Shown: positions 12,575 through 39,116 of the stretch, one piece after another
Position numbering within the stretch: the first letter of the stretch is position 1
Layout: each line of letters begins with the position of its first letter
Source of the DNA: Bacilli bacterium
GTDB lineage: Bacteria; Bacillota_I; Bacilli_A; RF39; UBA660
Direction of reading: 5' to 3'
DNA length: 64,000 nt
Assembly: GCA_017409785.1 (NCBI GenBank)
Contig: JAFQSD010000004.1
Location: 130,910-194,909 of the forward strand
Translations under genes and position numbers: made by a program
The notes under the pieces: model-generated
What the model was told of the DNA's origin: nothing
Databases searched by the model: none
What the model saw: only the letters and a program-made list of their open reading frames with translations

Positions 12575-14128
12575 ATGATTATTAGAAAACCATATGCCTT
12601 TTTAATTAAACATTTCAAAAAAATTCATATTTTATTATTAGTATTAAGTGCTTTTATTTATTATAGAAGTTTACAATTAAGTTCCTTTATCAGTGAATTC
12701 ATGCGTTTAGAAACATATGATTCTTATTATGAACCAATAACAAATCATGTATCATTCCTACCAATCTTGGCAATGATTCTATTGAGTATTGGAAGTATAA
12801 CCTTAATATTTTTACTACGTCATAAGAAAAAACCATGGAAACTATATATATTACCGGCCTTTGAATATATCTTTATGATGATTGTATTCTTTTCAGCAAA
12901 AAGCTTCTTCGACCAATATAATGGTATTGTAGATTCAGCTGGTATAAGAGCAATAAGAGACTTCTTGTTTATTGCTACGGTATTACAATATCCATCTATG
13001 TTTATATTCCTTTTAAGAACAATTGGAGTCGATTTAAAAAAATTTAATTTTCAATCTGATGAAGAATATCTAGAACTAAGCAGTGCGGACCACGAAGAAT
13101 TAGAAATTAATATTGAATTTGATAAAGATAGTTTAAAACGTGGAGCAAAAAAACTCTTCAGAAACATGAGTTATATATATGCAGAACACAAACTGATAAT
13201 AAACATCATAGCATCAGTTTTATTTGTAGTGTTCTCATACGGAATGTATAAGTTTATTTTCATAACAAATAAATCATATGGACAAGGTGAATCCCTAAAT
13301 GCTAATGGTTATGAAATAACCATAAATAAAAGTTATTATACGGATAAAGACTATACGGGAAAAGTAGTAAGTGATAAAAGTGCATTCGTCATTGTAAATA
13401 TGACTGTAAAAAATACACAACAACAAAGAGAAGCTGATTTACAAAAATATCACGTTATGAACGGAATTAAAGACTATGTTACAACAGAAAAAATTTATGA
13501 AACAGAATTCCAAGATTTTGGTAATGCAGTTAAAACGCTAGATCTTAAACGTGATGAAAGTCAGACATTCATTATGATTTTTAAAGTAGATAAAGAACTA
13601 AGAAGAAATAGATTTGTACTATATTATCAAGAATTTAACGGAGATACTCCACATTTAAGAAAAATTAAATTAAAACTAAATGATGTTTCAGAAATAAAAG
13701 AACATAAAGCAATCACAATCGGAGATGAATTAAAGTTTACTCTAGAAGAAAAAACAGAAAAGATAACATTTGATGATTTTGAGTTCCTTGATTCAGTCGA
13801 ATATTCATATAGAATTTGTTATAGTTCTAACTGTTCCACAAAACAAGGAATTTACACTGCAAAAGAAGGGTACAAAATCCTTAAAATGCCGTTCTCTTCC
13901 AACAATTTTGAGGGCAAAGATATGATTGACTTTTCAACTAAATATGGTACAATAAATTATATAGATAATAAGGGTAAGAAGAGTAGCATATCAATCAAAA
14001 ATCCATTCAATAAAACATACTACGGAAAGTACTTATATGCTCAAGTCCCTATAGCAGTATCAAATTCAACAAATATTGAATTAGAATATACAATTAGAAA
14101 CAATAGATATATATATAAGATTAGATAA
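12575..14128 (+). CDS. Polytopic membrane protein (about 4 N-terminal TM helices) with a large extracytoplasmic beta-rich domain (DUF4352-like). First gene of the accessory block.
   Basis: Hydrophobic segments in residues 15-150. The C-terminal region ITINKSYYTDKDYTGKVVSDKSAFVIVNMTVKNT...SQTFIMIFKVDKE resembles a DUF4352-type beta-sandwich. Confidence 0.45.
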   Translation: MIIRKPYAFLIKHFKKIHILLLVLSAFIYYRSLQLSSFISEFMRLETYDSYYEPITNHVSFLPILAMILLSIGSITLIFLLRHKKKPWKLYILPAFEYIFMMIVFFSAKSFFDQYNGIVDSAGIRAIRDFLFIATVLQYPSMFIFLLRTIGVDLKKFNFQSDEEYLELSSADHEELEINIEFDKDSLKRGAKKLFRNMSYIYAEHKLIINIIASVLFVVFSYGMYKFIFITNKSYGQGESLNANGYEITINKSYYTDKDYTGKVVSDKSAFVIVNMTVKNTQQQREADLQKYHVMNGIKDYVTTEKIYETEFQDFGNAVKTLDLKRDESQTFIMIFKVDKELRRNRFVLYYQEFNGDTPHLRKIKLKLNDVSEIKEHKAITIGDELKFTLEEKTEKITFDDFEFLDSVEYSYRICYSSNCSTKQGIYTAKEGYKILKMPFSSNNFEGKDMIDFSTKYGTINYIDNKGKKSSISIKNPFNKTYYGKYLYAQVPIAVSNSTNIELEYTIRNNRYIYKIR

Positions 14129-14137
14129 GGAGGAATT

Positions 14138-15940
14138 ATGAATAAAAAAACTATAAATTTTTTAAAACTTTTGGTAGTAGTAGTAATCGCAGCCTTATTT
14201 GTATGGTTTGTATTTATATATCCATCATACAACTTTAGTAAATATGAAAAAAGTTTAGAGGAAGCAGCAAAAAGATATTTCGATTTAAATCAAACAGAAT
14301 TACCTACTGGAAATAGAATTGCAACAGTCTCAATGCAAACTCTATATCACAAATCATATTTAAAAGAAGATTTTTATATTCCATATACTGATGAACCATG
14401 TAACTTAAAAGATTCATGGGTAAAAGTTAGAAAAGTAGATGGAGAATATAAGTATTATACATATCTACAATGCGGAGCTATTAGATCAACAGTAGATAGT
14501 AAAGGACCAACAATAAATTTAAATGGTTCTGAAAAAATAACAGTTGATTTAGGCGAAGAATATAAAGACCCAGGAATTAAAAGTGTAGTAGATAACAGTG
14601 ACGGAAAAATGGATGTTAAAGAAGTAACTGTTAATGCTAGTAAAGTTGATACAAATAAAATTGGAACATACGAAGTAACATATACAGCACAAGATGCATT
14701 AAAGAATAAAACAGTAGTTACAAGAGAAGTTGAAGTTGTATCTAAAATAAAAAATGCTGTAAAAGTTGCCACTGATAAAAAAGGTTATTATACAGGTAAA
14801 GAACCAAATAACTACTTAAGATTATCAGGAATGTTATTTAGAATCATTGGTGTAGATGGAGATAATGTTAAAATAGTTGCCTCAGAAGATATTGCCAATG
14901 TTAACTATAGTGGTATCTCATCATGGCTAGAAGATTACTATATGAGTCATATTAATGACGAAGCTAAAAAGCTTTTAGTAAAAAACAAATATTGTAATAT
15001 GTCAGCAACTACAGAAAACTTATCAACGACAGAATGTACATCATATACGAAGAAAAGATATGCGTATGTAACTTCAATAACAGATGTAAATAAATCATTA
15101 GTAAATAATGAATCATTCTTAAGACCAGGAACAATGACTTGGTTAGCAAATGAGAGTGATAAAGATAAAGCCTATGCAACAAGAAATATTTTCTTTGGAG
15201 AATATTCTTACAATTATGTATTTATTCCAGAAAACAAATCTGAAAACTATGGAGTTCGCCCGGTACTAACTGTAAAAGGAAATACATTAGTAAAAAAAGG
15301 AGACGGAACATATGAAAATCCATATTCATTTGGTGAAACCAAATCTGGAAAGATTGATGAAAAGATAAATACAAGATATTCTGGTGAATATTTAGAATAT
15401 GCAGGAAACCTATGGAGAATCATTGAAGTAAATAGCGATGGAACAACAAAAATTATTTCTGTAGAAAATATTAAAAAAAATGGTGTCCCTGTTGAAATAA
15501 AATATGACACAAAATCAGACAAAAAGATTTATAATCCAAAAGAAAAAGGAAACATAGGATATCAAATTAACAATAGAATGAGTGAATATATTGATACATC
15601 ATATTTCGTTAATAAAAATATAAGTGTGCCAATTTATAAAAAAGAATTCCAATATGGCAAAGAATTAGAAACTAAGAAGTACAAAGTTAAATTGTCCGCA
15701 CCAAATATGTATGAAATGTTCTCAACTATTGAAAATCAAAAAAATTCATCATATTGGTTAATTAATTCATCTGAAGCAAAATATTACAAAGCAGTAACAT
15801 CAGATGTAGGAGTAGTGGTTAGTGGAGAAATAGGAGATTTCACAAAATTTGGAGTAAGAGTAGTTGGAAATCTATCTAAATCGGTAATCATTACAAAAGG
15901 AAATGGAACACTTGAAAAACCATATGGTATTACGAAGTAA
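14138..15940 (+). CDS. Membrane-anchored surface protein with an Ig-like (DUF5011-type) domain and C-terminal repeats shared with ORF 37871.
   Basis: N-terminal TM segment. GPTINLNGSEKITVDLGEEYKDPGIKSVVDNSDGK...IGTYEVTYTAQDALKNKTVVTREVEVV is a classic DUF5011 Ig-like pattern. Repeated NY.RL...(F/W)RII...K(I/V)(I/V) and RPV..L.....K.G.GT...PY motifs. Confidence 0.55.
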   Translation: MNKKTINFLKLLVVVVIAALFVWFVFIYPSYNFSKYEKSLEEAAKRYFDLNQTELPTGNRIATVSMQTLYHKSYLKEDFYIPYTDEPCNLKDSWVKVRKVDGEYKYYTYLQCGAIRSTVDSKGPTINLNGSEKITVDLGEEYKDPGIKSVVDNSDGKMDVKEVTVNASKVDTNKIGTYEVTYTAQDALKNKTVVTREVEVVSKIKNAVKVATDKKGYYTGKEPNNYLRLSGMLFRIIGVDGDNVKIVASEDIANVNYSGISSWLEDYYMSHINDEAKKLLVKNKYCNMSATTENLSTTECTSYTKKRYAYVTSITDVNKSLVNNESFLRPGTMTWLANESDKDKAYATRNIFFGEYSYNYVFIPENKSENYGVRPVLTVKGNTLVKKGDGTYENPYSFGETKSGKIDEKINTRYSGEYLEYAGNLWRIIEVNSDGTTKIISVENIKKNGVPVEIKYDTKSDKKIYNPKEKGNIGYQINNRMSEYIDTSYFVNKNISVPIYKKEFQYGKELETKKYKVKLSAPNMYEMFSTIENQKNSSYWLINSSEAKYYKAVTSDVGVVVSGEIGDFTKFGVRVVGNLSKSVIITKGNGTLEKPYGITK

Positions 15941-15951
15941 GAGGTGAGGTT

Positions 15952-16782
15952 ATGCACAAGAAAAATAAAAGAAAATTAAAACTGAATCAGAGGACCAAGA
16001 CATTAGCTCTTGTAACAGGTCTTCTGATTTGTTGCTGTATTGTACTAGTTACATTAACTGCGATGTGGATAGTACCAAAAAATATCTATAAAGTAGAAGA
16101 CAGACAAAAAGAAATTAAGAAAGAACAAAAGAAAGATGAAGAAGGAATCGAAACAGTAGCTTGGCTAAGAGTTCAAGGAACAATGATTGATACTCCAATC
16201 GTTGCCTATGAAGAAGGAAAAGATCTAAGTTACCTAGATAAAGAAGATTTCTTGTGGACAGAAGCAAAAACAGCAGAATATAAAAACCAAATCAAAATAA
16301 TGGGCCATAACATTTTAAATCTATCTGCCACACCAGAAATAGGAGTAAACTACTTTACAAAATTTGAAGATTTAATGGCATTTACTTATGAAGATTTTGT
16401 TAAAGAAAACAAATATATTCAATATTCAATCGGTGATAAAGAATATGTATATAAAGTATTCGCTGTGCTATATGACAAAAGTTATAATTTAGATTTATAT
16501 AATACAGATAATTATTCAACTGAAGAAATGGCAGATTATATTGAATTAGTGGAATCAAAGAGTTTATACGACTTTGATATAGATGTTGATGCAAGTGATG
16601 ACATCATTTCATTAGTAACATGTTCTAGACTATACGGAGTAGATCAAAAAAGACAATTCGTTGTTGTAGGAAGATTACTAAGAGATAATGAAAAGATGAC
16701 AAACTATTCATTTGAAACAACAGAAAAATATGAAGAAATTCAAAAACTAATGAAAGGAGAAATTAACTATGAAGCAGTATAG
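15952..16782 (+). CDS. srtB: Class B sortase-family transpeptidase.
   Basis: N-terminal TM segment. AWLRVQGTMIDTPIV matches the SrtB GWL.I.GT.IDYPV motif. Catalytic His (IMGHN), the TLxTC-type Cys motif ISLVTCS, and a downstream Arg (VVVGRLL) are present. Confidence 0.65.
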   Translation: MHKKNKRKLKLNQRTKTLALVTGLLICCCIVLVTLTAMWIVPKNIYKVEDRQKEIKKEQKKDEEGIETVAWLRVQGTMIDTPIVAYEEGKDLSYLDKEDFLWTEAKTAEYKNQIKIMGHNILNLSATPEIGVNYFTKFEDLMAFTYEDFVKENKYIQYSIGDKEYVYKVFAVLYDKSYNLDLYNTDNYSTEEMADYIELVESKSLYDFDIDVDASDDIISLVTCSRLYGVDQKRQFVVVGRLLRDNEKMTNYSFETTEKYEEIQKLMKGEINYEAV

Positions 16783-19726
16783 AAAAAGATTAATAGGGGT
16801 TATTCTTCTTGGTTTATTCACCTTAGTTTTAAGTTATAATGCTATAGCTGAAGAAACAACAACAACACCTCCAGCTGAAGAACCTGCAGTAAAAGAGTGT
16901 AAAAACGGTGAAGTTCAAGACATTGAATCTCGTTATAACTTAAAACTAGAAAAAGTTGGTGCTGGTCAATATAAAGTAACAATGGCTGGAGATGCAGCTG
17001 ATATTGATACAGGTGCATTCAAAATCATCGGTACTGAAGTAGGTATTGGTGATGACGAATATGAAGGAATTACTGGACCAGTTGGTACAATCAATGCCAT
17101 AGAAACAATTGCAGAAATTAAAAAAGGTCAAGATGCATACTTCAATGCAACACCAGCCACAGCAGCAGATGGTGCTAAGATATTAGCAGTAAAAGTTCAA
17201 ATGGTTGCAGGATCATCACTATTAAATGACTGTGACTATACAGGTAGACTTGTAATTAAAGATTACGGAGATTCAGCAATAAGCAATATCTTCAGTGGTG
17301 GTAACACACAAGAAAATTCAAAGTCTATTTATAAAACAGGAAGTATTTGTTATAACTTCTACAATGGAATTTGGAATAGTGAACAATTTATAGGTATAAG
17401 AGAATCAGATTTTAATGCTTACAATTACCAAGCGGCAGCAGGATTAATGGTTGGTGGTAAATCAGCTCAAGCAATTTATCAAACAACATTATCATATTGT
17501 TTCCAACAACATGTAACAATTGGAGCAGAATATTCTGATACAGACTTAGCTAATATGATTGGAAATGCAATCACATATACAAAGTCAAGAACACAAACAA
17601 TCGGTGGTTCAAATAAAACGTTTGCACAATTATTTGAAGAAATAAAAACTCACGCAAAAGTTCAAAATAAATCTGGTAAAACAGCTGAAGATAAAGGAAT
17701 CACTTGTGATTGGCAAAAAACAGAAACAACAGGAGATCCAAACGATTATTATAAAAATAAAAACTATTATTACAAAGAAGAACAAGTAGAATCAATTTCA
17801 GTTCAATATACATATAACTATGCTCCTGGTGATGTAGTAACAACACCAGCACAAGAAGTATGTACAAGAACATGTGCAGAAGCAGTAAAAGTGGAATATG
17901 GTCCACCAGTTGCTTCAAAAGCTGGATTATGCTTTGAATATAACGTAAAAGTAACAAGTTATGTAGAATGTACATCTGATATAAAACTTGATCCTCCAGT
18001 AGCACAAACAAACTATTGTAGTCCAGTTGCATTCTGTCACGAAAAGAACTGGAGATGGAGTGGTCACCAAGCAGGACCAACAGAAGAATTCGACGCATGT
18101 ATTCAAGAATGCGACGGAGGAAAATATACAAGTAAATGTAGTAAAAAATGTTACAAGAAAGTATATAAAAATTCAAAACTAAAATTATCATATGAAAATG
18201 ATATAGTAGCTAGTAGATTAAGCAATACATATACAGTAGATTCATGTATCGCAACAAGTCCAGATGGTGGATGTTATTACTGGAGTGGTAACGACATCAT
18301 GTGGAAGAGTACATACCAAGGCGGTCTAGACTTTACTAATGATGTAAGAGCTCTAGGAAGATGGTATAGAGAAGTACAATGGTACGTTGGAGACTTAGGA
18401 GAAGGAAGATCATACGACGTTTCTTCAAATGGTATCAAGACTAAGAAGAAAGCAAGTTCTTCAACAGGACACTGTCAAGATATTTGTTATTGGAAAACAG
18501 ACGTTTGTACAAAAGGTCAATATTTAAATCCAAACTCAGCATTAGAAGACTACCAAGCTAACTTAAAATTATATCAATCAAAAGTTGCTCAATGTGAAGC
18601 TGCAACAACATGTAGTTCATCAACTGCAACATTTACAATTTCAATTAACTATGATTCATATGTACAAGAAACAGGGGCAAGTGCTAAAACTAAAAAGAAA
18701 ACAACAATTAATTTCCCTCGTTCACCATTGAATCAAGATAAATTACCATCACATGGTAAAGATGTAGTAGATACAAGCAACACATTCAATGCCGATGGTT
18801 CAACATTATTGTCATACAATGGATGTTATACAGCAGCAACAGAAAAGAACTGGTATCAAGCTGAATGGGGATTCCCAGGAACATACATCCATAACAAAAC
18901 TGGAGAAATTTCTTATTCAAAAGATAAGATTCAAAGTGATACAGGTACAATCGAAGGATGGTACTATGATGATAATAAATTCTGTATGCCACTTGAAGCA
19001 GAAAGTGTTAATACAAAATGGTGGGAATGGTACAAGATAAACAACATGCAATTTAGCTGTTACACAAGCGACCAAATCAAAAATGAATTAGCAACAAACG
19101 ACGGAACATCAAATGGATACAACATCCATGCATCAACAACAGATTTTGGATACTTCGGTTGGGACTTCGATATAAGTTGTTTCTATGCACTTAGAAATGA
19201 ACTATGTGACGAAGATACATTAACACATTGTTGTAAAAAAGATACTTGTGTTGGAGATTCTTGTGAAACAGAAATAAACGGAGTTAAAAATTATATGTTC
19301 AGAGCAATCGATACAAATAACGTATTCCCAAATGCGATTGTAGAAGGTGTTACTGATGAAACAAAACGACCAATTGGATTCAACTGGACAAATAAAGCAG
19401 CAAACTCTAAAAACCCAGATTATCTTGTTAATCCAGCAAAATTAATTGAACAAATTGAAAATAGAAGTGAAAGTCTTTATACAGATGATAACTTAGATTA
19501 TCAATTCCATTTAACACCAGAAGTATTATGGAAAATTAAAGAGTACAATAAAGAAACACCATATGGTACATGGAATGGTAGAGTAGATATCAAAAACGGA
19601 ATCTACGTATATTTCAGTAACCTATGGGGAGAAATAGATAGTGGTGTAACAAAAACAGTAGACTTAAGAAACTACAGTTCAGTACTTAAAACTGGTACAC
19701 CAGGTGTAAATAATGAGGAGGATTGA
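16769..19726 (+). CDS. Large (985 aa) secreted cysteine-rich protein of unknown function.
   Basis: Signal peptide MKQYRKRLIGVILLGLFTLVLSYNAIA. About 40 Cys in clustered C-x-x-C, C-x3-C and CC patterns. No LPXTG or NPQTN sorting signal and no C-terminal anchor. Start overlaps the sortase stop. Confidence 0.6.
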   Translation: MKQYRKRLIGVILLGLFTLVLSYNAIAEETTTTPPAEEPAVKECKNGEVQDIESRYNLKLEKVGAGQYKVTMAGDAADIDTGAFKIIGTEVGIGDDEYEGITGPVGTINAIETIAEIKKGQDAYFNATPATAADGAKILAVKVQMVAGSSLLNDCDYTGRLVIKDYGDSAISNIFSGGNTQENSKSIYKTGSICYNFYNGIWNSEQFIGIRESDFNAYNYQAAAGLMVGGKSAQAIYQTTLSYCFQQHVTIGAEYSDTDLANMIGNAITYTKSRTQTIGGSNKTFAQLFEEIKTHAKVQNKSGKTAEDKGITCDWQKTETTGDPNDYYKNKNYYYKEEQVESISVQYTYNYAPGDVVTTPAQEVCTRTCAEAVKVEYGPPVASKAGLCFEYNVKVTSYVECTSDIKLDPPVAQTNYCSPVAFCHEKNWRWSGHQAGPTEEFDACIQECDGGKYTSKCSKKCYKKVYKNSKLKLSYENDIVASRLSNTYTVDSCIATSPDGGCYYWSGNDIMWKSTYQGGLDFTNDVRALGRWYREVQWYVGDLGEGRSYDVSSNGIKTKKKASSSTGHCQDICYWKTDVCTKGQYLNPNSALEDYQANLKLYQSKVAQCEAATTCSSSTATFTISINYDSYVQETGASAKTKKKTTINFPRSPLNQDKLPSHGKDVVDTSNTFNADGSTLLSYNGCYTAATEKNWYQAEWGFPGTYIHNKTGEISYSKDKIQSDTGTIEGWYYDDNKFCMPLEAESVNTKWWEWYKINNMQFSCYTSDQIKNELATNDGTSNGYNIHASTTDFGYFGWDFDISCFYALRNELCDEDTLTHCCKKDTCVGDSCETEINGVKNYMFRAIDTNNVFPNAIVEGVTDETKRPIGFNWTNKAANSKNPDYLVNPAKLIEQIENRSESLYTDDNLDYQFHLTPEVLWKIKEYNKETPYGTWNGRVDIKNGIYVYFSNLWGEIDSGVTKTVDLRNYSSVLKTGTPGVNNEED

Positions 19727-19732
19727 TTATAG

Positions 19733-20224
19733 ATGAACAAAGGAATGTTAACAGTAGGAATTATCATGTTAAGTCTAATGGCACTATTATTAATCAATGT
19801 CATTAGTAACTACTCAACTGGTGGAGAATTAGACTACTACCTAGTAAAAGAAACAACAGAGGCTGCAATGGAAGATGCCATTGACCTTGAATATTACAGA
19901 ATGAATTCATTATTAAGAATCGACAAAGAGAAGTTCGTAGAGAGCTTCCTTCGTCGATTTGCCGATAATGTCGATAATACACGTTCATACACAGTGAGCT
20001 TCTATGATATTAATGAAGTTCCACCAAAAGTAAGTGTAAAAGTTGATTCTCATACAGTATTAAGTTTCTCAGGTTCAGCAGCAAATATTTCAACAAATAT
20101 TGATGCAATTCTAGAAACAGATTACGAAGAAGATAAATACACTGAAAAAGTATTATCAGATCCAGATAACGATGCTGGATATGGAATCGGTGATAGAAGT
20201 AATAGTGCGAAAGGAGCAGAATAA
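19733..20224 (+). CDS. Bitopic membrane protein with a pseudopilin-like (TadE/TadF-like?) N-terminus.
   Basis: N-terminal hydrophobic segment MNKGMLTVGIIMLSLMALLLINVISNY. First gene of the Tad-like module. Confidence 0.3.
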   Translation: MNKGMLTVGIIMLSLMALLLINVISNYSTGGELDYYLVKETTEAAMEDAIDLEYYRMNSLLRIDKEKFVESFLRRFADNVDNTRSYTVSFYDINEVPPKVSVKVDSHTVLSFSGSAANISTNIDAILETDYEEDKYTEKVLSDPDNDAGYGIGDRSNSAKGAE

Positions 20225-20226
20225 AA

Positions 20227-21033
20227 ATGGGGAATCTTAGTACAGGAATAAAAAAGTTCTTACAAAACAAGAATACCGTAACAGTACTTGGAGTTGTTGT
20301 TGCAATCATCATATTATATGTTGCATACAATATGCGTGTTCAATCAGCAATTAATCCAATTAATGTTCCATATGCTAAAGAACAAATTTCACCTGGTACA
20401 CAAATTACAGCAAACATGGTTGGAACAAGAGCTGTACCACCATCAATGCTTGAAGGAGATGTAATCACATCTCAAAGTGCTGTAATTGATAAGTATTCTA
20501 GTGCTGATACAGTAATACCTGCAGGAAGTCTATTCTATGCAAGAACTGTAGTAGAAAAAGAACAATTACCTGCAAATATTATTCTTACTTATCCAAAAGG
20601 ATATGTATTATATAATATGTCAGTTACAACATCAACAACATATGGAAACTCAGTTTATCCAGGAAACTATATTGATATTTACTTAAAAGCAGTAAATAAA
20701 ATTGGTGAAGACGAAGAAATGACTGCTGATGCTGATAAAATCATGTTAGGAAAACTAATGTCTAACGTTAAAGTTTTAGCAGTAAAAGATTCTTCTGGAC
20801 AAGCAGTTTTCTCAAATCTAGATGAAAAAAGAACACCTGCAATGATCGTATTTGCAGTACCAGAAGAATATTATATTTTACTTAAAAAAGCAGAATATTT
20901 AAGAACATATGATTCAACACTAATCCCAGTTCCAACAAACGAAAGTTTAAAAGACGAACCAGGAGAATTAGAAATCAGTAGTGAATCATTAAAAGACTGG
21001 ATTAACAAAGTTACAGTTTGGACAGAATCATAA
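20227..21033 (+). CDS. cpaB: CpaB/RcpC-like SAF-domain Flp pilus assembly protein.
   Basis: N-terminal TM segment followed by a SAF-like segment VPYAKEQISPGTQITANMVGTRAVPPSMLEGDVI. Confidence 0.55.
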   Translation: MGNLSTGIKKFLQNKNTVTVLGVVVAIIILYVAYNMRVQSAINPINVPYAKEQISPGTQITANMVGTRAVPPSMLEGDVITSQSAVIDKYSSADTVIPAGSLFYARTVVEKEQLPANIILTYPKGYVLYNMSVTTSTTYGNSVYPGNYIDIYLKAVNKIGEDEEMTADADKIMLGKLMSNVKVLAVKDSSGQAVFSNLDEKRTPAMIVFAVPEEYYILLKKAEYLRTYDSTLIPVPTNESLKDEPGELEISSESLKDWINKVTVWTES

Positions 21034-21078
21034 AAAAGAAAAAAAGAATTACAAAAGAATTAAAGGGATGTGAGTTAG

Positions 21079-22470: not shown

Positions 22471-22485
22471 TAGAAAGGAGTTTGT

Positions 22486-24194: not shown

Positions 24195-24210
24195 ACAATA
24201 CAAAAAAAAG

Positions 24211-27552: not shown

Positions 27553-27580
27553 TTTAAAGCAAAAAAGAGGTGATTAGTAA

Positions 27581-29653: not shown

Positions 29654-29676
29654 TATAAAGAGGAGTGTGATACATA

Positions 29677-32319: not shown

Positions 32320-32346
32320 AATATAAAGTAGTAAGGTGGTGGAAGC

Positions 32347-34668
32347 ATGGCATACGAAGCAAATAGAGAAGGCGACCAAAGAGAAAACCAAATGTCTCAA
32401 GATGAACGCAACATTCAAAATAATGCAAACAACATAAGAAACGCAGCTGATGTTGCCATGGCTTCCGGTAACCCTTATGCAATGGCTGCAGGAGCAGCAG
32501 TAAAAGCTGCAGATAAACTTACAGGTGGGAAAAGTACTGAAATGGCAGGAAAAGCCCTAAATCAAGCAAATAAAATGGCTCCAGGAGGAAATCAAGTACA
32601 AAACTCATTAAATAAAATGAGCGAAAGTGGAGCAAGTGATAAAATCGGACAAGCAGCAGCCATAAAAAACGGAATGAGTAATGGTGGATCTGGAGGTGCA
32701 GATGCTGCTTCAAAAGCTGGAGAAACAGCAAATCCTACAGATAAAGCATCTTCAACTTCAAGTTCATCATCTGATTCATCAGGTGACGGATTAGGTAAAG
32801 GCTTTGGTGGTGGAAGAAAACCAAAAAATTGGTTAGATGATGGCTCTGATGAAAATAATGAGCCACAAGAGCCAACAGATACAATGTTTGAATTCCAAAT
32901 GAAACCAGAAACTAAAGCAATTATGTTGCTAGTTGCACCATTAGCAGGAATATTACTATTATTCTTTGCGATATCTGGTGCTGTAGGTGGAGGAGTTGCA
33001 GACTTCAATGATGCTCTAGGAGCAAGTGGAGCATCAGGTGGAGAAACAGGAAACATTGTATTCACAGCATCAGACCCTGATGCCCAAGCATTCTACGAAA
33101 GAATTAATAATGTAAAATTAAATATGCAAGCTAGTGGTAAAAGCGTAGACGTATTAAAAGTCGTAGCTGTTTACCACGTATTAAACGTAAATAATAATAA
33201 TTATGATTATAAATATATGACAGAGTCAGTTATCACAGATATTGCCAATGCAATGTTTAGTGGTAATGTCTATGATGAAACAACATTCAAGTTTAATTTA
33301 ACTAATGACATTTTCTATAAGCACTTCCCAAGAACAACTCAAAGTAAACGTGAATTAATGACTGAAGATGTATTTGATTATATTGATAGATATTACAGTT
33401 TCATTGGTACCGAAGGTTATGGTTGTGCTGCAGCTGGAGCATGTAATTACGATATTAAAGGTTTTTATATACCAGGCGCTGGAAATATCTCTAAACAAAT
33501 GCAAATATCAAATTTAATGGTTAGATTAATGGAATGTGGAAGTCCATATGGAAATGGAACATATGGAACACCAATTGACCAAGATATGGTTCCATTCGAA
33601 GAGTATGTAGCAGGAGTTGCATACGCAGAAGTTGGTCCAAGTGCTCACATTGAAGTACTAAAAGCCCAAATGGTTATGGCAAGAAGCTTTGCTCTTGCAA
33701 GACCAACAGGAATGGGAAATGCTCTTGGTAAAAAACTAGAACAAGAAAATAATCAATGGGTATTACAAATTTCATCATGCGTAGCCGACCAAGTATTCTG
33801 TAACATCAATGAAGGTTGTTCTTTCATGGGTGGTGGAGATGGTCAGGGTGGAATATGTCGAAGTGGACACGTTGCAGGAGCAGTAAGAACAAGAGATGCT
33901 TTAGCAGCGGACCATCAATTACGTACAGCAATGGCTGCAACAGCCGGAGAAGTATTAGTAAATGATCAAGGATATATTATCCAAACAGGCTATTTATCAA
34001 CAGAACAAAATCTTATGTCAAGCCTTGCTAATCAAGGAATGAATTATAAACAAATTCTGTTACAAGTATATAACTCAGGAAACAGAAATTATGGTGCAGC
34101 AGATATTCAAAAAATGGCTTGTAATACAGCAGGTTCTGCAAACTGTGGAACAGCATCATCTGGACCATACGCAAGTTGGAAACAATATGAAGGTCCATGG
34201 ACAAATGTAATCTTAGGTAATAGTGGAAAAACAATTAGACAAATCGGATGTTTAGCAACATCAGTTTCAATATTAATTGCTAAGAGTGGAGTTCCAACTG
34301 TCTTAGGAGATAACTTCAACCCAGGTACATTCGTTGAATATCTAAGTCAAAATGGTGGATTTGTAAGTGGAGGAAACTTCGTATGGGCATCAGCCTCAAA
34401 AGTAGCACCATCATTCCAATTCGTTGGACGAGCTTACGTTTCAGGATATACTAAAAATCAAAAATTACAAAAACTTACAGAACTAATGAATCAAGGATAT
34501 TATGTAGTTGCAGAAGTAAAAGGTAATACTGGACAACACTGGGTAGCAATAGATGCCATCGCTGGACAAACAATCATTATGATGGACCCTGGAAGTAGTA
34601 GCACAGATATGTGGGCTCAATATGATTGGAGAAATACAAGTACTTTTGCATACTTTAAAGCGGGGTAA
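32347..34668 (+). CDS. Cell-wall hydrolase (VirB1 analog): a disordered G/S/A-rich N-terminus, a TM segment, a SpoIID/LytB-like domain, and a C-terminal CHAP-like Cys/His peptidase domain.
   Basis: EEYVAGVAYAEVGPSAHIEVLKAQMVMARSFALAR matches the SpoIID motif. The C-terminus has RQIGCLATSVSILIAKSG and GQHWVAIDAI (CHAP-like Cys and His). TM segment AIMLLVAPLAGILLLFFAISGAV. Confidence 0.55.
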   Translation: MAYEANREGDQRENQMSQDERNIQNNANNIRNAADVAMASGNPYAMAAGAAVKAADKLTGGKSTEMAGKALNQANKMAPGGNQVQNSLNKMSESGASDKIGQAAAIKNGMSNGGSGGADAASKAGETANPTDKASSTSSSSSDSSGDGLGKGFGGGRKPKNWLDDGSDENNEPQEPTDTMFEFQMKPETKAIMLLVAPLAGILLLFFAISGAVGGGVADFNDALGASGASGGETGNIVFTASDPDAQAFYERINNVKLNMQASGKSVDVLKVVAVYHVLNVNNNNYDYKYMTESVITDIANAMFSGNVYDETTFKFNLTNDIFYKHFPRTTQSKRELMTEDVFDYIDRYYSFIGTEGYGCAAAGACNYDIKGFYIPGAGNISKQMQISNLMVRLMECGSPYGNGTYGTPIDQDMVPFEEYVAGVAYAEVGPSAHIEVLKAQMVMARSFALARPTGMGNALGKKLEQENNQWVLQISSCVADQVFCNINEGCSFMGGGDGQGGICRSGHVAGAVRTRDALAADHQLRTAMAATAGEVLVNDQGYIIQTGYLSTEQNLMSSLANQGMNYKQILLQVYNSGNRNYGAADIQKMACNTAGSANCGTASSGPYASWKQYEGPWTNVILGNSGKTIRQIGCLATSVSILIAKSGVPTVLGDNFNPGTFVEYLSQNGGFVSGGNFVWASASKVAPSFQFVGRAYVSGYTKNQKLQKLTELMNQGYYVVAEVKGNTGQHWVAIDAIAGQTIIMMDPGSSSTDMWAQYDWRNTSTFAYFKAG

Positions 34669-34672
34669 TTAA

Positions 34673-35452
34673 ATGAAAAAGAAAAAAAGATATATTGTGA
34701 TATTAGCAGTTTTAGCAATTTATGTAGTAATAATGCTTCTAGTCCTTGGAAAAGATATGCTAGTAAAAAATAAAGATGAAGCAACAATTGTTGTTGGAGA
34801 TACATCAATATGGGTATATAAAGACAAGGGCTGGACAAACATTACTAATCCACAAACGATAGCCTCACTTAATTGGACTGAATATAATGTATATTTAGAT
34901 AACCAAGAATATGGAAAATATTATTTATGGAATGATGACAAATGGTATTTATTTGATAAAAATAAAAAAGCCATTCCAAGAGAAGGTACATTATTAGCAA
35001 TAAAGTCAAATTATGATATAAAAGTAAAAAATTTCACTCCGAAAAACATAAGAAATTACTATCATGTAGAAAAAGTGCTTGAACAAAATAATTTAAGTAC
35101 ATCATCTAAATATACCGTTGAACAAGAAGTATCAATAGATATAGATAATGATGGAAATAATGAAACATTTTATTTTGTAAGTAATGCCTTTTCATTAGAT
35201 TATAATCCAAGTAAAATATTCTCAATTGTATTTATGGTAAAGAATAGTAAGATTTATCCAATATATACAGATATAGCACCAAACACAACAAATAATGGGT
35301 GCAAGCCATACTTAAGTGCAGTGCTTGATGTTGATCAAGATAACATCTATGAGATGGTTATAAGTTGTGGAAAATATTCAACAGAAACACCATCAGACAT
35401 GTTATACAAACTAACAGATGATGGTTTCAAAATTGTGATTTCAAATCAATAA
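34673..35452 (+). CDS. Bitopic membrane protein (VirB8/TcpC-like candidate) of unknown function.
   Basis: N-terminal TM segment MKKKKRYIVILAVLAIYVVIMLLVLG followed by an extracytoplasmic beta-rich domain. Located between the hydrolase and the coupling protein. Confidence 0.3.
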   Translation: MKKKKRYIVILAVLAIYVVIMLLVLGKDMLVKNKDEATIVVGDTSIWVYKDKGWTNITNPQTIASLNWTEYNVYLDNQEYGKYYLWNDDKWYLFDKNKKAIPREGTLLAIKSNYDIKVKNFTPKNIRNYYHVEKVLEQNNLSTSSKYTVEQEVSIDIDNDGNNETFYFVSNAFSLDYNPSKIFSIVFMVKNSKIYPIYTDIAPNTTNNGCKPYLSAVLDVDQDNIYEMVISCGKYSTETPSDMLYKLTDDGFKIVISNQ

Positions 35453-35513
35453 ATAATGACAGTTATAAAAAGTTAAGTTATAATAAAAAAGAAAAAAGAA
35501 AGGAAGTAGTAAT

Positions 35514-37853
35514 ATGAAACTTAAATTTCGTGCAGACCCAGAAGATTGGATGATATTTGGTATATTTGCAGTTGCATTATTGTACGTTATTGCAATTGGT
35601 GTAGTAAATCTAGCATCATTCGCATCAGATGGAACCTTATCAGGGTTAAATCCTTTTCCTGCGTTTAGCACAGAACATATAACAACAACATTAGTATTAT
35701 ATTTCTTAACACTTGGTGGTCTATTCGTAAGTGTTAGTTCATACTTTTTTGAAAGAGAAAAAGGTTTTGGTCTAACAGCCGATAAAAAAGACAAAGGATA
35801 TTCAAGATGGGCTAAAGATAAAGAAATCAAAGAAGAATTAAAATGTGTTAAAATTCAACAAAAAAATTCTAAAGCCGCAGGTATTCCAATTATCTTGAAT
35901 AAAGAAGAAATGTGGGTAGACGACAGTGAATACCACTCATTAGTAATCGGAGCTACTGGGTCAGGTAAAACACAAGGTATTGTATTCCCACAAGTTAATA
36001 GTTTAGCTAAAGCTAGAGAGTCAATGATTATTACCGACCCTAAAGGTGAAATCTATGAACAAACAAGTTTAATGTTACGAAAAAGAGGATATCAAATCTT
36101 ACTTTTAAACTTCCGTGATCCACAAAACGGTAATGCATGGAATCCATTATCATTACCTTATAAAATGTACAAATCAGGAAATCAAGATAAAGCAATCGAG
36201 TTATTAGACGACTTAGCATTGAACATTCTATATGATGATTCAAATAAAAATGCTGACCCATTCTGGGAGAAAACATCAGCAGACTACTTTTCTGGAGTAG
36301 CTCTAGGATTGTTTGAAGATGCTAAAGAATCAGAAATTAATATTAATAGTATTTCCTTAGCAACAACAGTTGGTGAAGAAAAATTTGGTGGTTCAACATA
36401 CATCAAAGAATACTTTGCAGCTAAAGACCAATCAAGTGCAGCTGCAATCAATGCATCAAGTACAATCATGGCACCATCAGAAACAAAAGGAAGTATCCTT
36501 TCAGTATTTAAACAAAAAGTTAAATTATTCGCATCACGTGAAAATTTAAGTGAAATGTTATCACATAGTGATATCGATTTAGAGAGTATTGGTGCAAGAC
36601 CAACTGCCGTATTCATCGTTATTCAAGATGAAAAGAAAACATATCACTCATTAGTAACAATTTTATTAAAGCAAATATATGAAACACTAATTTCTACAGC
36701 ACAAAAGAATGGTGGAAAACTACCAGTAAGAACTAACTTCATTCTAGATGAGTTTGCCAACATGCCACCATTAAAAGATGTTACAACAATGATTACTGCC
36801 GCACGTTCACGTAGAATTAGATTTACAATGATTATTCAAAACTTTGCACAATTAGATGGTACATATGGTAAAGATGATGCCGAAACAATCAGAGGTAACT
36901 GTGGTAACATAATTTACCTAATTACAACAGAACTTAAAGCCTTAGAAGAAATTTCAAAAATGTGTGGTGAAGTAAAATCTAAGAAAGATGATAAAACTGC
37001 CTCAACACCACTTGTTACAGTATCAGACTTACAACGTATGAAACAATATGAAACAGTAATATTAAGAATGCGTAAACAACCATTCAAAACAAAACTTACA
37101 CCAAACTGGCAATTAGATTGGGGAATAAAATATCCTAATGCCAAGTATCCAATACGTAAGAAAGTAGAAGTTGATACTTTTGATATTAAAGAGTTTGTTA
37201 AAGATCAAAAGAAGAAAAAGTTATTAGAAATGATGAATGGATCAGATGATGCTAAAAAAGAGGTTATGTCTAAACTACCTCCAGCAGATTTCATGAAAAA
37301 AGATCCACTTCCATTTGATAAACCTGCAGAAGCAGCAAGAATTCCTGACTTCTTAACAAGAGGGCCTATCGAACCAGAAGAAAGAAAAGTTATGGGTGGC
37401 GGAAGAGTATCTGCTCCAGCAAGACCACCAGTTTATGAAGAACCAATATCTAAACCACCAGTTGATGATGATTTGGGATTTGATGTAGACGAGTTAGTAA
37501 AGAAAATTGATGCTAAAATTGCTGAACTTGAAGAAGAAGAAAGACGCAATAAAGCAGGAGCAACTGCAACACCAGCAACTAAGCCACAACCAATTATCAA
37601 TAAGCCAGTTGCAGTACCTAAACAACAACCATTACCAACAGAGACACCAAGTTCTGATGGTGGCGCAGTTTCAAGTATTGATGAATTCTTAAGTAAAGCA
37701 CCAGTAGCTGAAACAACAATGCCAAAGATTAAACCTTTAGAAGAAAAAGTAGTCGAACCAATTAATAGTGTTGTCAAACCTAAAGACAACTTATCATTAT
37801 CAGATGAAGAAAATGATGATGATGATTTCTTTGATGACTTTTTTGATAATTAA
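35514..37853 (+). CDS. virD4: VirD4/TraG-family type IV coupling protein with a long disordered acidic C-terminal tail.
   Basis: Two N-terminal TM segments. Walker A motif VIGATGSGKTQG and Walker B motif NFILDEFANMPP. The C-terminal ~250 aa are P/A/K/E-rich and end in EENDDDDFFDDFFDN. Confidence 0.75.
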   Translation: MKLKFRADPEDWMIFGIFAVALLYVIAIGVVNLASFASDGTLSGLNPFPAFSTEHITTTLVLYFLTLGGLFVSVSSYFFEREKGFGLTADKKDKGYSRWAKDKEIKEELKCVKIQQKNSKAAGIPIILNKEEMWVDDSEYHSLVIGATGSGKTQGIVFPQVNSLAKARESMIITDPKGEIYEQTSLMLRKRGYQILLLNFRDPQNGNAWNPLSLPYKMYKSGNQDKAIELLDDLALNILYDDSNKNADPFWEKTSADYFSGVALGLFEDAKESEININSISLATTVGEEKFGGSTYIKEYFAAKDQSSAAAINASSTIMAPSETKGSILSVFKQKVKLFASRENLSEMLSHSDIDLESIGARPTAVFIVIQDEKKTYHSLVTILLKQIYETLISTAQKNGGKLPVRTNFILDEFANMPPLKDVTTMITAARSRRIRFTMIIQNFAQLDGTYGKDDAETIRGNCGNIIYLITTELKALEEISKMCGEVKSKKDDKTASTPLVTVSDLQRMKQYETVILRMRKQPFKTKLTPNWQLDWGIKYPNAKYPIRKKVEVDTFDIKEFVKDQKKKKLLEMMNGSDDAKKEVMSKLPPADFMKKDPLPFDKPAEAARIPDFLTRGPIEPEERKVMGGGRVSAPARPPVYEEPISKPPVDDDLGFDVDELVKKIDAKIAELEEEERRNKAGATATPATKPQPIINKPVAVPKQQPLPTETPSSDGGAVSSIDEFLSKAPVAETTMPKIKPLEEKVVEPINSVVKPKDNLSLSDEENDDDDFFDDFFDN

Positions 37854-37870
37854 TAGAAGGAGATTTGCTT

Positions 37871-39088
37871 ATGTCAATGAATTTTAAAGTAGAAGGCGAA
37901 AAAGACAAAGAAAAAGTAGCCGATGAATTAGATGAAGTAGTAGATGAATACGAAGAATTTGAAGAAGTAGAAACAAGTTCATCATCAAGTAGTAAAAGCG
38001 ATGATAAAAAAGGTCTTGTTAAACTATTATCTATACTTCTAGGGGTTATAATAGTGTTTATTTTAGTAATGTTCCTATTAACTTCATGTACATCAGGTAC
38101 AAAAACATATGAAGAAATGGAAGCATTAATGGTAGAGGCAGCAGAGTCATATTTTGCTGATCATAACGAAAACTTACCTAAAAAAGATGGTGGAACACAA
38201 ACTATCGACGTATCAGTACTAGTTGCAGAAGGATATATGAAGGACTTATCTAAATATAATAGTGCAATATGTACAGGAACTGTAAAAGTTCAAAAATCTG
38301 GAAGCACATATGCTTATACACCAAACTTAAATTGTGGTGAATCATATGCTTCAGTAGAATTATCTGATAAAATTAAAGACGATAATAAAATAGTTAGTTC
38401 AGGATATGGATTATATAATAAGAATGGAAATTATGTATTCCGTGGTGAAACAGTAAATAACTATGTTCAATTAGATAATGCAGTATGGAGAGTTGTTAAA
38501 ATTACTTCTAGTGGTAATACAGTAATTATCTTAGATGAACCACTACCAATGACATCACCATATGATAATCGTTATAATGAAGTAGCAAACTACAAGTCAG
38601 GAATTAATAACTATTCTTCAAGTAGATTAAAAGAAAAATTATTAGAAGAATATAACAAAGAAGAATCATTCCTAAGTGATAACGATAAAGCAAAAACAGA
38701 TACATTTAATATTTGTTCTGGAGCACGTTCATTAACTGAAACAGGTGTAGAACAAGCAGTTGAATGTAAATTACAAGAACAAAATCAAAAAGTAGGATTA
38801 TTAACAGCAGCAGATTACATGAATGCAAGTGTTGATGCAGGATGTACAACAGTAGCAAGTAAGAACTGCCAAAACTATAACTACTTAAATGGTCCAAAAG
38901 CTGAGTGGTGGACATTAACTCCATCTAAAACTAATACATATTTAGCTTATATGGTTAGTATCAATAATGGAATTAAAGAAACAGAAACATATAACTATGC
39001 AGCATTAAGACCAGTTGTTTACTTAAACTCTAATGTATTATACAAGAGTGGTACAGGTACAGAAACTGATCCATATATAGTAAAATAA
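37871..39088 (+). CDS. Membrane-anchored surface protein: acidic cytoplasmic N-terminus, TM segment, and an extracellular domain sharing repeats with ORF 14138.
   Basis: First ATG at 37871 with an AAGGAG RBS (the ORF-track start at 37865 is TTG). Motifs NYVQLDNAVWRVVKITSSGNTVIIL and ALRPVVYLNSNVLYKSGTGTETDPYIV parallel the repeats in ORF 14138. Confidence 0.5.
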   Translation: MSMNFKVEGEKDKEKVADELDEVVDEYEEFEEVETSSSSSSKSDDKKGLVKLLSILLGVIIVFILVMFLLTSCTSGTKTYEEMEALMVEAAESYFADHNENLPKKDGGTQTIDVSVLVAEGYMKDLSKYNSAICTGTVKVQKSGSTYAYTPNLNCGESYASVELSDKIKDDNKIVSSGYGLYNKNGNYVFRGETVNNYVQLDNAVWRVVKITSSGNTVIILDEPLPMTSPYDNRYNEVANYKSGINNYSSSRLKEKLLEEYNKEESFLSDNDKAKTDTFNICSGARSLTETGVEQAVECKLQEQNQKVGLLTAADYMNASVDAGCTTVASKNCQNYNYLNGPKAEWWTLTPSKTNTYLAYMVSINNGIKETETYNYAALRPVVYLNSNVLYKSGTGTETDPYIVK

Positions 39089-39116
39089 GAATCTATTCAA
39101 TAGATTCTTTTTTTTT
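39089..39116 (+). terminator. Strong rho-independent terminator closing the accessory block.
   Basis: GAATCTAT-TCA-ATAGATTC (8-bp stem) followed by T9. Confidence 0.7.

Follow-up and report, generated by a model that had tools for sequence, protein, structure and literature searches.

A chromosomal locus of uncultured Bacilli joining a Gram-positive type IV secretion system with a Tad-like module: probable domesticated mating-pair-formation machinery

Gene content of the block

The stretch of DNA analysed here, hereafter the window, comprises 64,000 nucleotides of an uncultured Bacilli bacterium (assembly GCA_017409785.1, contig JAFQSD010000004.1, positions 130,910 to 194,909) and carries a co-directional gene block at 12575-39088 on the plus strand. 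This block combines the genes of a Gram-positive-type type IV secretion system (T4SS) with a module resembling Tad pilus genes, framed by surface proteins and a sortase. Judged from sequence comparison with related genomes and Bacillus-group plasmids, it probably represents vertically inherited, chromosomally fixed ('domesticated') mating-pair-formation (MPF) machinery of the pLS20, pBMB64 and pXO1 plasmid kinds, in which Gram-positive T4SS and Tad-like module belong together.

Twenty-two open reading frames (ORFs) of at least 50 aa were counted for the block in the ORF list of the window, fewer than the about 27 genes given by an initial annotation made from the sequence by a model. They are referred to below by their first position:

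12575-14128 (+): first gene, polytopic membrane protein with about 5-6 transmembrane (TM) segments in residues 1-230 and an extracellular DUF4352-type domain
14138-15940 (+): surface protein anchored by one N-terminal TM segment, with a bacterial Ig-like domain (PF16403, 62.8 bits)
15952-16782 (+): sortase, distantly class-B-like (Pfam Sortase, 32.5 bits against a cut-off of 26.6)
16769-19726 (+): 985-aa Cys-rich secreted protein with signal-like N-terminus, fast-evolving, putative adhesin
19733-20224 (+): DUF5411 protein with pilin-like N-terminus, candidate pseudopilin (PF17424, 165.7 bits)
20227-21033 (+): CpaB/RcpC-like (SAF) protein (RcpC, 28.1 bits against a cut-off of 28.8, plus SAF)
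21079-22470 (+): secretion ATPase of the TadA/CpaF/FlaI clade with Q/P-rich tail (PF00437, T2SSE, 96.7 bits)
22486-23388 (+): TadB-like platform protein, divergent T2SSF-like
23388-24194 (+): TadC-like platform protein, paralogue of 22486
24272-24439 (+): 55-aa pilin-like protein of about Flp-pilin size, sequence MKDATGELNLTVITLVAIAAVIGFFW
24459-24914 (+): 151-aa pseudopilin-like protein, conserved N-terminus MRDAFGGxVN followed by a TM segment
24932-26002 (+): TadZ/CpaE-like protein, predicted receiver-like domain plus ParA/MinD-like domain with degenerate Walker A
26057-26377 (+): VirB2-like two-TM hairpin protein (T4SS_pilin, PF18895, 17.3 bits)
26470-27552 (+): secreted domain followed by a C-terminal T4SS_pilin-like hairpin (PF18895, 17.4 bits, residues 282-338)
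27581-29653 (+): extended VirB6/TrbL-like channel protein (TrbL_4, 20 bits)
29677-30003 (+): VirB3/PrgI-like protein with two TM segments
29972-30532 (+): N-terminal part of VirB4 as a separate ORF (NF045975 positions 92-276, E 2e-14)
30529-32319 (+): C-terminal part of the VirB4 ATPase (NF045975 positions 295-891, 342 bits against a cut-off of 590)
32347-34668 (+): membrane-anchored cell-wall hydrolase, SpoIID domain (PF08486, 47.7 bits) and a Cys/His-containing C-terminal domain
34673-35452 (+): bitopic protein with one TM segment and a conserved DxDxDG motif
35514-37853 (+): VirD4-type coupling protein with long acidic tail (PF02534, 199.5 bits)
37865-39088 (+): second anchored surface protein, DUF6273 (PF19789, 24.7 bits against a cut-off of 23.5)

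The T4SS half

The block contains VirB4, VirD4, VirB6-like and VirB3-like proteins and a cell-wall hydrolase, the components by which Gram-positive conjugative T4SSs (MPF-FA/FATA types) are recognized. The VirD4 coupling protein reported initially scored 306 bits with the CD1115 family model (NF045973), over the curated cut-off of 250; it contains the TraG-D_C domain and is conserved among related loci with a median identity of 66%. VirB4 is divided between 29972 and 30529, and the NF045975 model covers both parts, in agreement with the earlier reading of a split gene. The C-terminal part additionally matched the CD1110 family (171 bits, below the equivalog cut-off) as well as AAA_10 and P-loop_TraG, and evolves with a ratio of nonsynonymous to synonymous substitutions (dN/dS) of 0.028. 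Since 79 of 79 related loci, as well as pLS20 and pBMB64, encode the two parts in separate ORFs, the split is native; an origin by frameshift or pseudogene formation was rejected on the same evidence.

For the channel protein 27581, the proposed VirB6/TrbL-like identity was borne out by TrbL_4, by the pLS20_p028 family (39 bits, below cut-off) and by hhalign, which aligned its family to pLS20 gene 49 at 92.4%. A hidden Markov model (HMM) of the 29677 family matched a PrgI-family protein of pBMB64 at 4e-6 (hhalign 56%). As read from such profile matches, the VirB6-like and VirB3-like assignments appear weak but consistent.

PF18895 was matched by 26 of the 48 members of the 26057 family (best E 2.1e-6), and 26057 itself weakly matched a pilin-like family from the integrative and conjugative elements (ICEs) of mycoplasma. 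Its hairpin recurs in 26470, with 34% identity over 73 aa (E 1e-11). Three pilin-hairpin proteins had been listed initially; two of them stand, the third does not, the VirB6-like protein bearing a weak resemblance and a further hairpin protein lying outside the block. The latter (5244-6113, +; 289 aa) is encoded among housekeeping genes, 6.5 kb upstream of the block, and has a T4SS_pilin-like two-TM hairpin (PF18895, 25.2 bits against a cut-off of 26.6) fused to NLPC_P60 (55.6 bits), an assignment also found in precomputed annotation. It is a possible unlinked accessory of the same machine.

The SpoIID domain of the hydrolase 32347 was also recovered by TIGR02669 and by PDB entry 4rwr; the CHAP domain that had been named together with it was not detected by Pfam, NCBIfam or PDB. 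The bitopic protein 34673 has a single TM segment, as described before, and gave no Pfam, NCBIfam or PDB-profile match and, by hhalign, none to gene 53 of pLS20; it may have a VirB8-like function.

The Tad-like half

The earlier assignment of 21079 as a CpaF ATPase holds at the level of the clade. Against PDB profiles it scored 70.8 bits with FlaI, 68.5 with CpaF and 53 with VirB11, and against NCBIfam 107 bits with VirB11 and 103 with TadA-conjugal, both below cut-off; because all NCBIfam equivalog cut-offs were missed, membership in TadA/CpaF is at clade level only. A true VirB11 was considered and is less likely, as FlaI and CpaF outscore VirB11 in the PDB comparison. With pLS20 gene 37 the ATPase shares 35.6% identity, and its best plasmid matches are pLS20-family genes labelled "tadA/VirB11-like". 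Residues ~360-463 form a long Q/P-rich low-complexity C-terminal tail, and members of the family range from 391 to 737 aa, mainly by variation in tail length.

RcpC/CpaB, just short of its curated cut-off, and SAF domains were matched in 20227, in line with the initial annotation. With TIGR03177 the protein scored 39.7 bits, a significant match by E-value (3e-10) that lies below the curated cut-off of 71, and the family HMM matched plasmid SAF proteins at 4e-37 and 1e-32.

The platform proteins 22486 and 23388 gave no direct match to the Pfam family PF00482 (T2SSF), and their naming as TadB-like and TadC-like is suggested by transitive homology via plasmid homologues. The TadB-like family HMM matched a Priestia "T2SS F family protein" at 3e-17 and the TadC-like family HMM matched plasmid homologues at 1e-16 and 1e-10. 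Plasmid homologues from three plasmids in turn matched T2SSF with E-values of 3.4e-5, 1.8e-4 and 0.014, all under the gathering score, and two are named "type II secretion system F family" by NCBI. By hhalign, the TadB-like and TadC-like families align to each other at 94.7% (E 5.7e-8); the former also aligns at 98% to plasmid homologues and at 90.8% to pLS20 gene 38, the latter at 96.1% to pLS20 gene 39. The TadB-like gene has a dN/dS of 0.045-0.075. A profile search of 1.84 billion representative sequences with the TadB-like family returned mostly fragments and 10 full-length distant relatives, none with a T2SSF match. An AlphaFold2 model of the TadB-like protein, built from a shallow alignment (91% mean column identity), was unusable (pLDDT 58, pTM 0.32).

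Three small proteins of this half, 19733, 24272 and 24459, share a short, charged, Gly-containing N-terminus followed by a hydrophobic helix, have no E at position +5 and match neither the Flp nor the TadE family of Pfam. The N-terminus of 19733 (MNKGMLTVGII) is invariant among relatives. Its initial label, TadE-like, gives way to DUF5411; DUF5411 is annotated at the equivalent position on a Priestia plasmid and matched below threshold on B. thuringiensis and B. cereus plasmids. The same label for 24459 found no family match to back it. The 55-aa protein 24272 is nearly invariant in 75 sequences; it matched no family, and the Flp G/XXXXEY motif is absent from it.

The predicted fold of 24932 supports the earlier description as a degenerate TadZ-like protein, its receiver-like and ParA/MinD-like domains conforming in the model to TadZ/CpaE architecture. 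PDB profile searches with the TadB-like and TadZ-like families returned nothing meaningful.

Absence of mobility genes

In accordance with the initial annotation, the flanks of the block consist of housekeeping genes. Elsewhere in the window these include genes for RuvX, a rhomboid protein, YceG, U32 peptidases, TrpRS, trigger factor, Lon, Fur and a sigma factor, together with 12 clustered tRNA genes; the ~16 kb beyond the window ends, which extend the survey to ~80 kb, encode DnaE, LspA, a pseudouridine synthase and a D-Ala-D-Ala carboxypeptidase. Over these ~80 kb no relaxase, integrase, transposase, single-stranded DNA-binding protein (SSB) or primase gene was detected, in line with the absence of relaxase, integrase and recombinase genes noted before. 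It had been held that a relaxase or integrase just outside the block would mark it as an ordinary conjugative element; the extended survey contains neither. Likewise, no prepilin peptidase (TadV/CpaA, Peptidase_A24) was found in the block, the window or the ~16 kb beyond it, and neither block border has a tRNA gene. Flanking direct repeats had not been seen in the initial annotation, though no repeat search was made here. The relaxases of pLS20, pBMB64 and the Priestia plasmid gave no tblastn match (E<1) in 2.7 Mb of sequence comprising the window and 160 related loci with flanks of +/-10 kb.

Apart from the block, a gene for an MvaI/BcnI-family restriction endonuclease (63091-63858, -) directly follows the 12-tRNA cluster (61854-63040, +). 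Sporulation-type genes are present at 56215-61079 (+), among them those for a sigma factor and YunB; a YutH-like spore-coat protein and a PRC-barrel protein were identified as well. From its gene content the organism is probably walled and possibly spore-forming, though records of the lineage are labelled Tenericutes or Mycoplasma.

Fixation in the lineage and selection

The exact ATPase was found on metagenomic contigs only. It is matched at E <= 1e-10 by over 7,400 database proteins; the best 120 of them are all at least 72% identical, and their sources assign them to metagenome-assembled genomes (MAGs) of uncultured "Bacilli bacterium". A scan of one genome per species yielded at least 545 stretches encoding a relative of the ATPase, the best 80 of which (68-89% identical) were compared. 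The MAGs of these 80 are labelled uncultured Bacilli, Tenericutes, Mycoplasma sp. CAG:877 and Candidatus Faecimonas, the last being placed by NCBI in Bacilli incertae sedis; presumably they belong to the GTDB order RF39. Literature searches for T4SS or Tad systems in RF39 turned up no earlier description of the locus.

The full gene order from 12575 to VirB4 is kept in 80 of 80 species loci, where sequence is available, and greA lies upstream in all loci with a matchable flank (45 loci). Metagenomic loci centred on VirD4 complete the picture at the other end: they keep VirB6, VirB4, the hydrolase, 34673, VirD4 and 37865 in this order, and many of them continue with the genes for rhodanese, DedA and RmuC. 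The synteny comparison suggested by the initial annotation revealed the same block in these relatives, with the same neighbours where the flanks could be matched. Protein divergence in the block tracks that of the flanks, with Spearman coefficients of 0.72-0.78 for RmuC and 0.46 for GreA.

Compared with two relatives, the genes of the ATPase, the TadB/C-like and CpaB-like proteins and VirB4 show dN/dS values of 0.03-0.15, next to 0.03-0.05 for greA; values of 0.26-0.57 apply to the sortase, the 985-aa protein and 26470. The core genes are under strong purifying selection. Together with conservation in all 80 species loci and the lack of a relaxase or integrase in the ~80 kb surveyed, this favours the domesticated apparatus that the initial annotation had offered as one possibility.

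In distant relatives the modules are permuted or compacted, with Tad-like and T4SS parts still linked. A homologue of the first gene is present in 74 loci, and its linkage survives the permuted module order. In four of the permuted loci (L124, L126, L133 and L150) this homologue (~14600-20000) lies 2-6 kb downstream of VirD4 (~10001-12600), and one compact version (L159, 39-11993) has VirD4 directly after VirB4.

Homologous gene sets on Bacillus-group plasmids

Firmicute conjugation modules were initially thought not to include CpaF, TadB, TadC or CpaB. This is contradicted by pLS20, pBMB64, pBCXO1 and a Priestia plasmid, all of which carry Tad-like homologues beside T4SS genes of the VirB4/VirD4 type. 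Because homologous gene sets occur on Bacillus-group plasmids, the combined Tad and T4SS architecture is known, though under-described. The family HMMs matched plasmid proteins with E-values of 4e-37 (CpaB), 4e-57 (ATPase), 1e-22 (VirB4-N), 5e-94 (VirB4-C, pBMB64) and 2e-88 (VirD4). TadB-like homologues were found on 363 plasmids, nearly all from Bacillus (B. cereus group), and are mostly annotated 'hypothetical protein'. The hhalign comparisons became informative only once the family alignments had been broadened with plasmid homologues; for the 12575, 14138, 19733, 24272, 24459 and 24932 families, no partner of at least 40% probability was obtained against single plasmid proteins, and megablast of 19 kb of the block against plasmids gave no match.

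The experimentally conjugative pLS20 bears its conjugation operon in genes 34-55. The operon starts with an adhesin, a small anchored protein, the ATPase (gene 37), the polytopic genes 38 and 39 and small TM proteins, and continues with VirD4, an extended VirB6, a 2-TM protein, a 192-aa ORF, a 631-aa VirB4, a VirB8-like protein and a hydrolase; a relaxase follows farther on. The block shares the adhesin, the small N-anchored protein, the ATPase, the two polytopic proteins, the small one- or two-TM proteins, VirD4, the extended VirB6, a 2-TM VirB3-like protein, a VirB4 of ~190 plus ~630 aa and the hydrolase. Unlike the block, the plasmid pLS20 also encodes a MobP2 relaxase with accessory proteins, an SSB and replication functions and is controlled by quorum sensing; its annotation includes no recognisable CpaB/SAF or DUF5411 gene, and its VirD4 precedes VirB6 instead of lying at the block end. 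Genes 38-41 of pLS20 are 'unknown' in the literature, where only the ATPase is named, as "VirB11".

On the B. cereus-group and Priestia plasmids the likeness extends to the DUF5411-like, SAF/CpaB, TadZ-type ParA-like, ATPase, TadB-like, TadC-like and small pilin-like proteins, and this Tad-like set shares the replicon with VirD4 (CD1115 family), TrbL, PrgI and a split VirB4. The Priestia koreensis plasmid encodes Ig-like, DUF5411, SAF, ParA-like, CpaF/VirB11, "T2SS F family" and TadC-like proteins, and its replicon also holds genes for a relaxase and a coupling protein. B. thuringiensis pBMB64 combines a MobP3 relaxase, VirD4, TrbL, PrgI and split VirB4 with DUF5411-like, SAF, ParA-like, ATPase, TadB-like, TadC-like and DUF4320 genes. 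In pXO1-type pBCXO1 (CP009592.1; locus L167, 8689-13627), CpaB, ParA-like, ATPase, TadB-like and TadC-like genes lie ~11 kb from the PrgI gene, and the published gene table of the conjugative plasmid pAW63 (pAW63/pXO2 type) contains the same local pattern surrounding its "VirB11". The plasmids differ from the block in possessing a relaxase (beside the coupling protein on pBMB64 and the Priestia plasmid; typed MOBP for pBCXO1), in the ParA-like gene, which lies between CpaB and the ATPase and retains the AAA_31 signature, whereas the TadZ-like gene of the block follows the pilin-like genes and has a degenerate P-loop, and, for pBMB64, in placing the T4SS before the Tad-like module. A gene order shared with well-characterised conjugative elements, which the initial annotation had named as another mark of an ordinary one, was hence found in part. 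The block stands out for being fixed in the chromosome and for having lost every DNA-processing gene; its hybrid content is not what makes it unusual.

Surface proteins, sortase and the first gene

Both surface proteins of the initial annotation were confirmed by family matches, the Ig-like one at 14138 by PF16403 and the one near the block end, with its ORF at 37865-39088, by DUF6273; the two are paralogous, with weak similarity. Between them, the 985-aa protein 16769 matched no family in Pfam or NCBIfam and shows the maximum dN/dS of the block (0.49-0.57). Its C-terminus weakly resembles (E 0.001) the Ig-like protein encoded ahead of the Priestia plasmid's Tad-like module.

The sortase at 15952 retains the GHN histidine and the TC cysteine in 75 sequences. 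Its recognition as a sortase stands; the likeness to class B is distant, the score with the class-B model TIGR03064 (61 bits) lying well below the cut-off of 153.75. Motif and C-terminal-anchor scans revealed no LPXTG-type sorting signal in any ORF of the window.

The window copy of 12575 has no Pfam or NCBIfam match, and DUF4352 was matched by 18 of 38 members of its family (best E 2.7e-6). Its candidacy as a non-canonical prepilin peptidase was rejected, the A24 signature being absent and the family bearing an extracellular DUF4352 domain.

Boundaries and layout

The following features delimit and subdivide the block:

11763-12242: greA, upstream neighbour of the block
12471-12500 (+): AT-rich hairpin plus T-run at the upstream boundary, 3' of the small ORF 12310-12483
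26006-26034 (+): best sigma-70-like match of the region (TTGACA-17-TATTAT, 11/12), possible internal promoter before the T4SS half
39089-39116 (+): hairpin plus T-run at the downstream boundary
39134-39436: rhodanese gene, downstream neighbour, followed by a DedA/VTT gene and then rmuC

The initial outline of a same-strand block between greA and rhodanese, bracketed by terminators, agrees with 12575-39088 (+) and with both hairpins, which were read directly in the sequence. They went unreported by a consensus scanner because they are AT-rich and the scanner requires at least 3 G-C pairs. Intergenic gaps in the block measure -32 to +92 nt, a wider range than the 0-60 nt given before; overlapping stop and start codons do occur, at three junctions. 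The G+C content is 0.30-0.37 within the block versus 0.25-0.30 around it. An Rfam scan of the window yielded tRNAs only, with no riboswitch or other element.

The promoter-like site at 26006-26034 occupies the 54-nt gap between the TadZ-like and VirB2-like genes, a hint that the Tad-like half and the T4SS half are transcribed separately; sigma-70-like matches, taken as a class, were not enriched relative to shuffled sequences. Between greA and the block, the small ORF 12310-12483 (+) encodes 57 aa with a single TM segment, has its own hairpin and T-run and is kept only in the closest relative (L003, 68% identity).

Proposed function and alternative explanations

We infer that the machine remains functional in contact-dependent translocation. 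Binding of the target cell would be the task of the surface proteins 14138, 16769 and 37865, with the help of the sortase. The ATPase, the platform and the TadZ- and CpaB-like proteins may use the 55-aa, 151-aa and DUF5411 proteins as subunits of a short pilus or pseudopilus, and this Tad-like fibre could establish or steady the contact across the thick wall. A passage through the peptidoglycan would be cleared by the SpoIID hydrolase, VirB3, VirB4, VirB6 and the VirB2-like proteins would together make up the membrane channel, and selection of the cargo would fall to VirD4. Since no part of a DNA-processing module is present, the machine does not bring about its own transfer. By a heuristic of the field, T4SS loci lacking a relaxase point to protein secretion or decay, and decay is excluded by the selection data. 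Delivery of protein or other non-self cargo to neighbouring cells is put forward tentatively as the likeliest option, narrowly ahead of the export of chromosomal DNA by a nickase that is non-canonical or encoded elsewhere. DNA import is given a low likelihood, and adhesion alone, with no cargo, takes the modest share that is left.

Several points weigh against the reading as domesticated MPF machinery. An old acquisition would likewise be compatible with the slightly raised G+C of the block relative to its flanks. Other parts of these genomes, which are of the 1.4-Mb class, could encode a relaxase or prepilin peptidase, the search having covered ~80 kb. Function is proposed from sequence, and any cargo, effector or oriT is hypothetical. 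The link of the TadB/C-like proteins to T2SSF is transitive and sub-threshold only. Since the pilin-like proteins lack Flp and TadE motifs and match no pilin family, the fibre is deduced and not observed, and since the roles of pLS20 genes 37-41 were never shown, physical coupling of the two halves has conserved linkage as its sole basis.

Among the alternatives, a chromosomal DNA donor survives best, although it is doubtful: host DNA would be exported to kin by way of an unlinked relaxase or a non-canonical initiator, by analogy with mycoplasma chromosomal transfer. All characterised homologues move DNA, VirD4 falls above cut-off in a conjugative family and has TraG-D_C, the best VirB4 model is that of mycoplasma ICEs (342 bits), and a recent review lists VirB4/VirD4 systems that move chromosomal fragments. 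Against this, no locus has a relaxase, SSB, primase or other gene for DNA processing close to the block, and the above heuristic directs relaxase-less loci to protein secretion or decay. If true, chromosomal DNA donation would offer a reduced-genome lineage a means of recombination.

It is unlikely that two independent machines lie side by side by chance, one encoded by the operon of a Tad-type adhesion pilus (12575-26002), the other by that of a T4SS (26057-39088), and are functionally uncoupled. A CpaF-GspF-DUF5411 operon of gut Clostridia is described with T4SS genes unmentioned, the promoter-like site at 26006-26034 separates the halves, and the order of the halves differs among the block, pBMB64 and some distant relatives. 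The halves are nonetheless linked in all contexts examined, i.e. 80 species, the permuted relatives and four unrelated Bacillus plasmid types, and the Tad-like genes 37-41 of pLS20 reside inside the conjugation operon, between adhesin and VirD4.

Still less probable is a machine for DNA uptake (competence), conceived by analogy with the ComB T4SS of H. pylori or with Tad/Flp-pilus-dependent transformation. The T4SS-based ComB (PMC12857230) and Tad-dependent uptake, named in the title of PMC8513845, provide precedents, the genomes are reduced, and RmuC is a conserved neighbour. ComB-type systems operate without VirD4 (PMC12857230), whereas the VirD4 of the block is conserved, and no ComEC/ComEA-type gene was found in the ~80 kb surveyed.

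An ordinary ICE or recently acquired island, with relaxase and integrase just outside the examined stretch, has the conjugation-apparatus content, the G+C slightly above the surroundings and the plasmid location of the closest characterised homologues in its favour, but is largely refuted by the presence of the block in 80 of 80 species, by its conserved neighbours (greA upstream in 45 loci, rhodanese/RmuC downstream in loci of relatives), by its co-divergence with the flanks, by the lack of relaxase, integrase and recombinase genes in ~80 kb and of plasmid-relaxase homologues in 160 loci, and by the missing border tRNAs.

Returning to the domesticated MPF machinery, a bolder version, drawn by analogy with the dependence of Saccharibacteria on their chromosomal T4SS and pili and rather improbable as a whole, would see in it a core, possibly essential organelle of a prevalent gut lineage for obligate contact with microbes or host cells or, alternatively, for chromosomal DNA exchange with no canonical relaxase, in which the Tad-like module would be the missing pilus/VirB11 arm of a whole class of Gram-positive T4SSs, an arm whose existence current reviews deny.

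Significance

According to a T4SS review of December 2025, Gram-positive T4SSs "universally lack VirB11 homologs" and, except in Patescibacteria, lack VirB2 (PMC12857230). The block and several Bacillus plasmids contradict the first statement with a CpaF/FlaI-clade ATPase accompanied by TadB/C-, CpaB- and TadZ-like partners; contrary to the second, VirB2-like hairpin proteins are carried by the block and at least by the pXO1-type plasmid. By sequence, one large class of monoderm conjugation systems seems to include a Tad-like sub-machine as an integral if uncharacterised component, for which genes 37-41 of pLS20 provide a tractable model. A conjugation-type machine held at housekeeping-level constraint in at least 80 species, with no mobility genes found nearby, is a clear case of exaptation. 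The block furthermore offers a molecular handle on contact dependence, DNA exchange or effector delivery in a very abundant, uncultured gut lineage with small genomes.

Comparison with known systems

With the Tad/Flp pili of Aggregatibacter and Caulobacter (Cpa) the block shares a TadA/CpaF-clade ATPase, a paralogous TadB/TadC-like pair, a CpaB/RcpC-like protein, the TadZ/CpaE architecture and a pilin-sized protein of ~55 aa. It differs in that no prepilin peptidase was found in ~80 kb, in the absence of the Flp G/XXXXEY motif and of Pfam TadE/Flp matches, in family scores that are all below curated cut-offs and in the embedding of the module in a T4SS locus. Sortase-assembled Gram-positive pili have LPXTG-type pilin substrates encoded beside the sortase, which the block does not.

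The predicted 'secretion-related' CpaF-GspF-DUF5411 operon of gut Clostridia (Roseburia, Ruminococcus, Eubacterium; Miller et al. 2022), compared by description, likewise encodes a CpaF-type ATPase, a GspF/PilC-like membrane protein, DUF5411 and an adhesin-like protein. It differs from the block in its 8-9 genes, among which T4SS genes are unmentioned, and belongs to a different bacterial class.

In the IncI R64 thin pilus and PAPI-1 systems, a conjugative T4SS is combined with a pilus of the type IV filament superfamily that aids or is required for mating contact. Unlike the block, these systems reside in diderm hosts, are mobile, encode relaxases and form type IVb pili with their own prepilin peptidase and PilV adhesins.

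Mycoplasma ICEs (ICEA type) supply the best VirB4 model and the pilin-like family weakly matched by 26057. The VirB4 score of 342 falls short of the Mbov_0397-family cut-off of 590, and the ICEs differ from the block in being mobile and in having wall-less hosts. They move by a DDE recombinase and, to our knowledge, contain no Tad-like genes.

The T4SS of Saccharibacteria (Patescibacteria), compared by description, resembles the block in its monoderm-type VirB1/B3/B4/B6/D4 set, VirB2-like pilins, chromosomal location, reduced genomes and uncultured lineages, and is not evidently mobile. The rvh T4SS of Rickettsiales is a similar case. The Saccharibacteria belong to another phylum, and their system differs further in an array of six VirB2-like pilins and in that no Tad-like module is reported. 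Essential for epibiotic growth (PMC12857230), this chromosomal T4SS may, by analogy, be regarded as the nearest conceptual parallel to the block.

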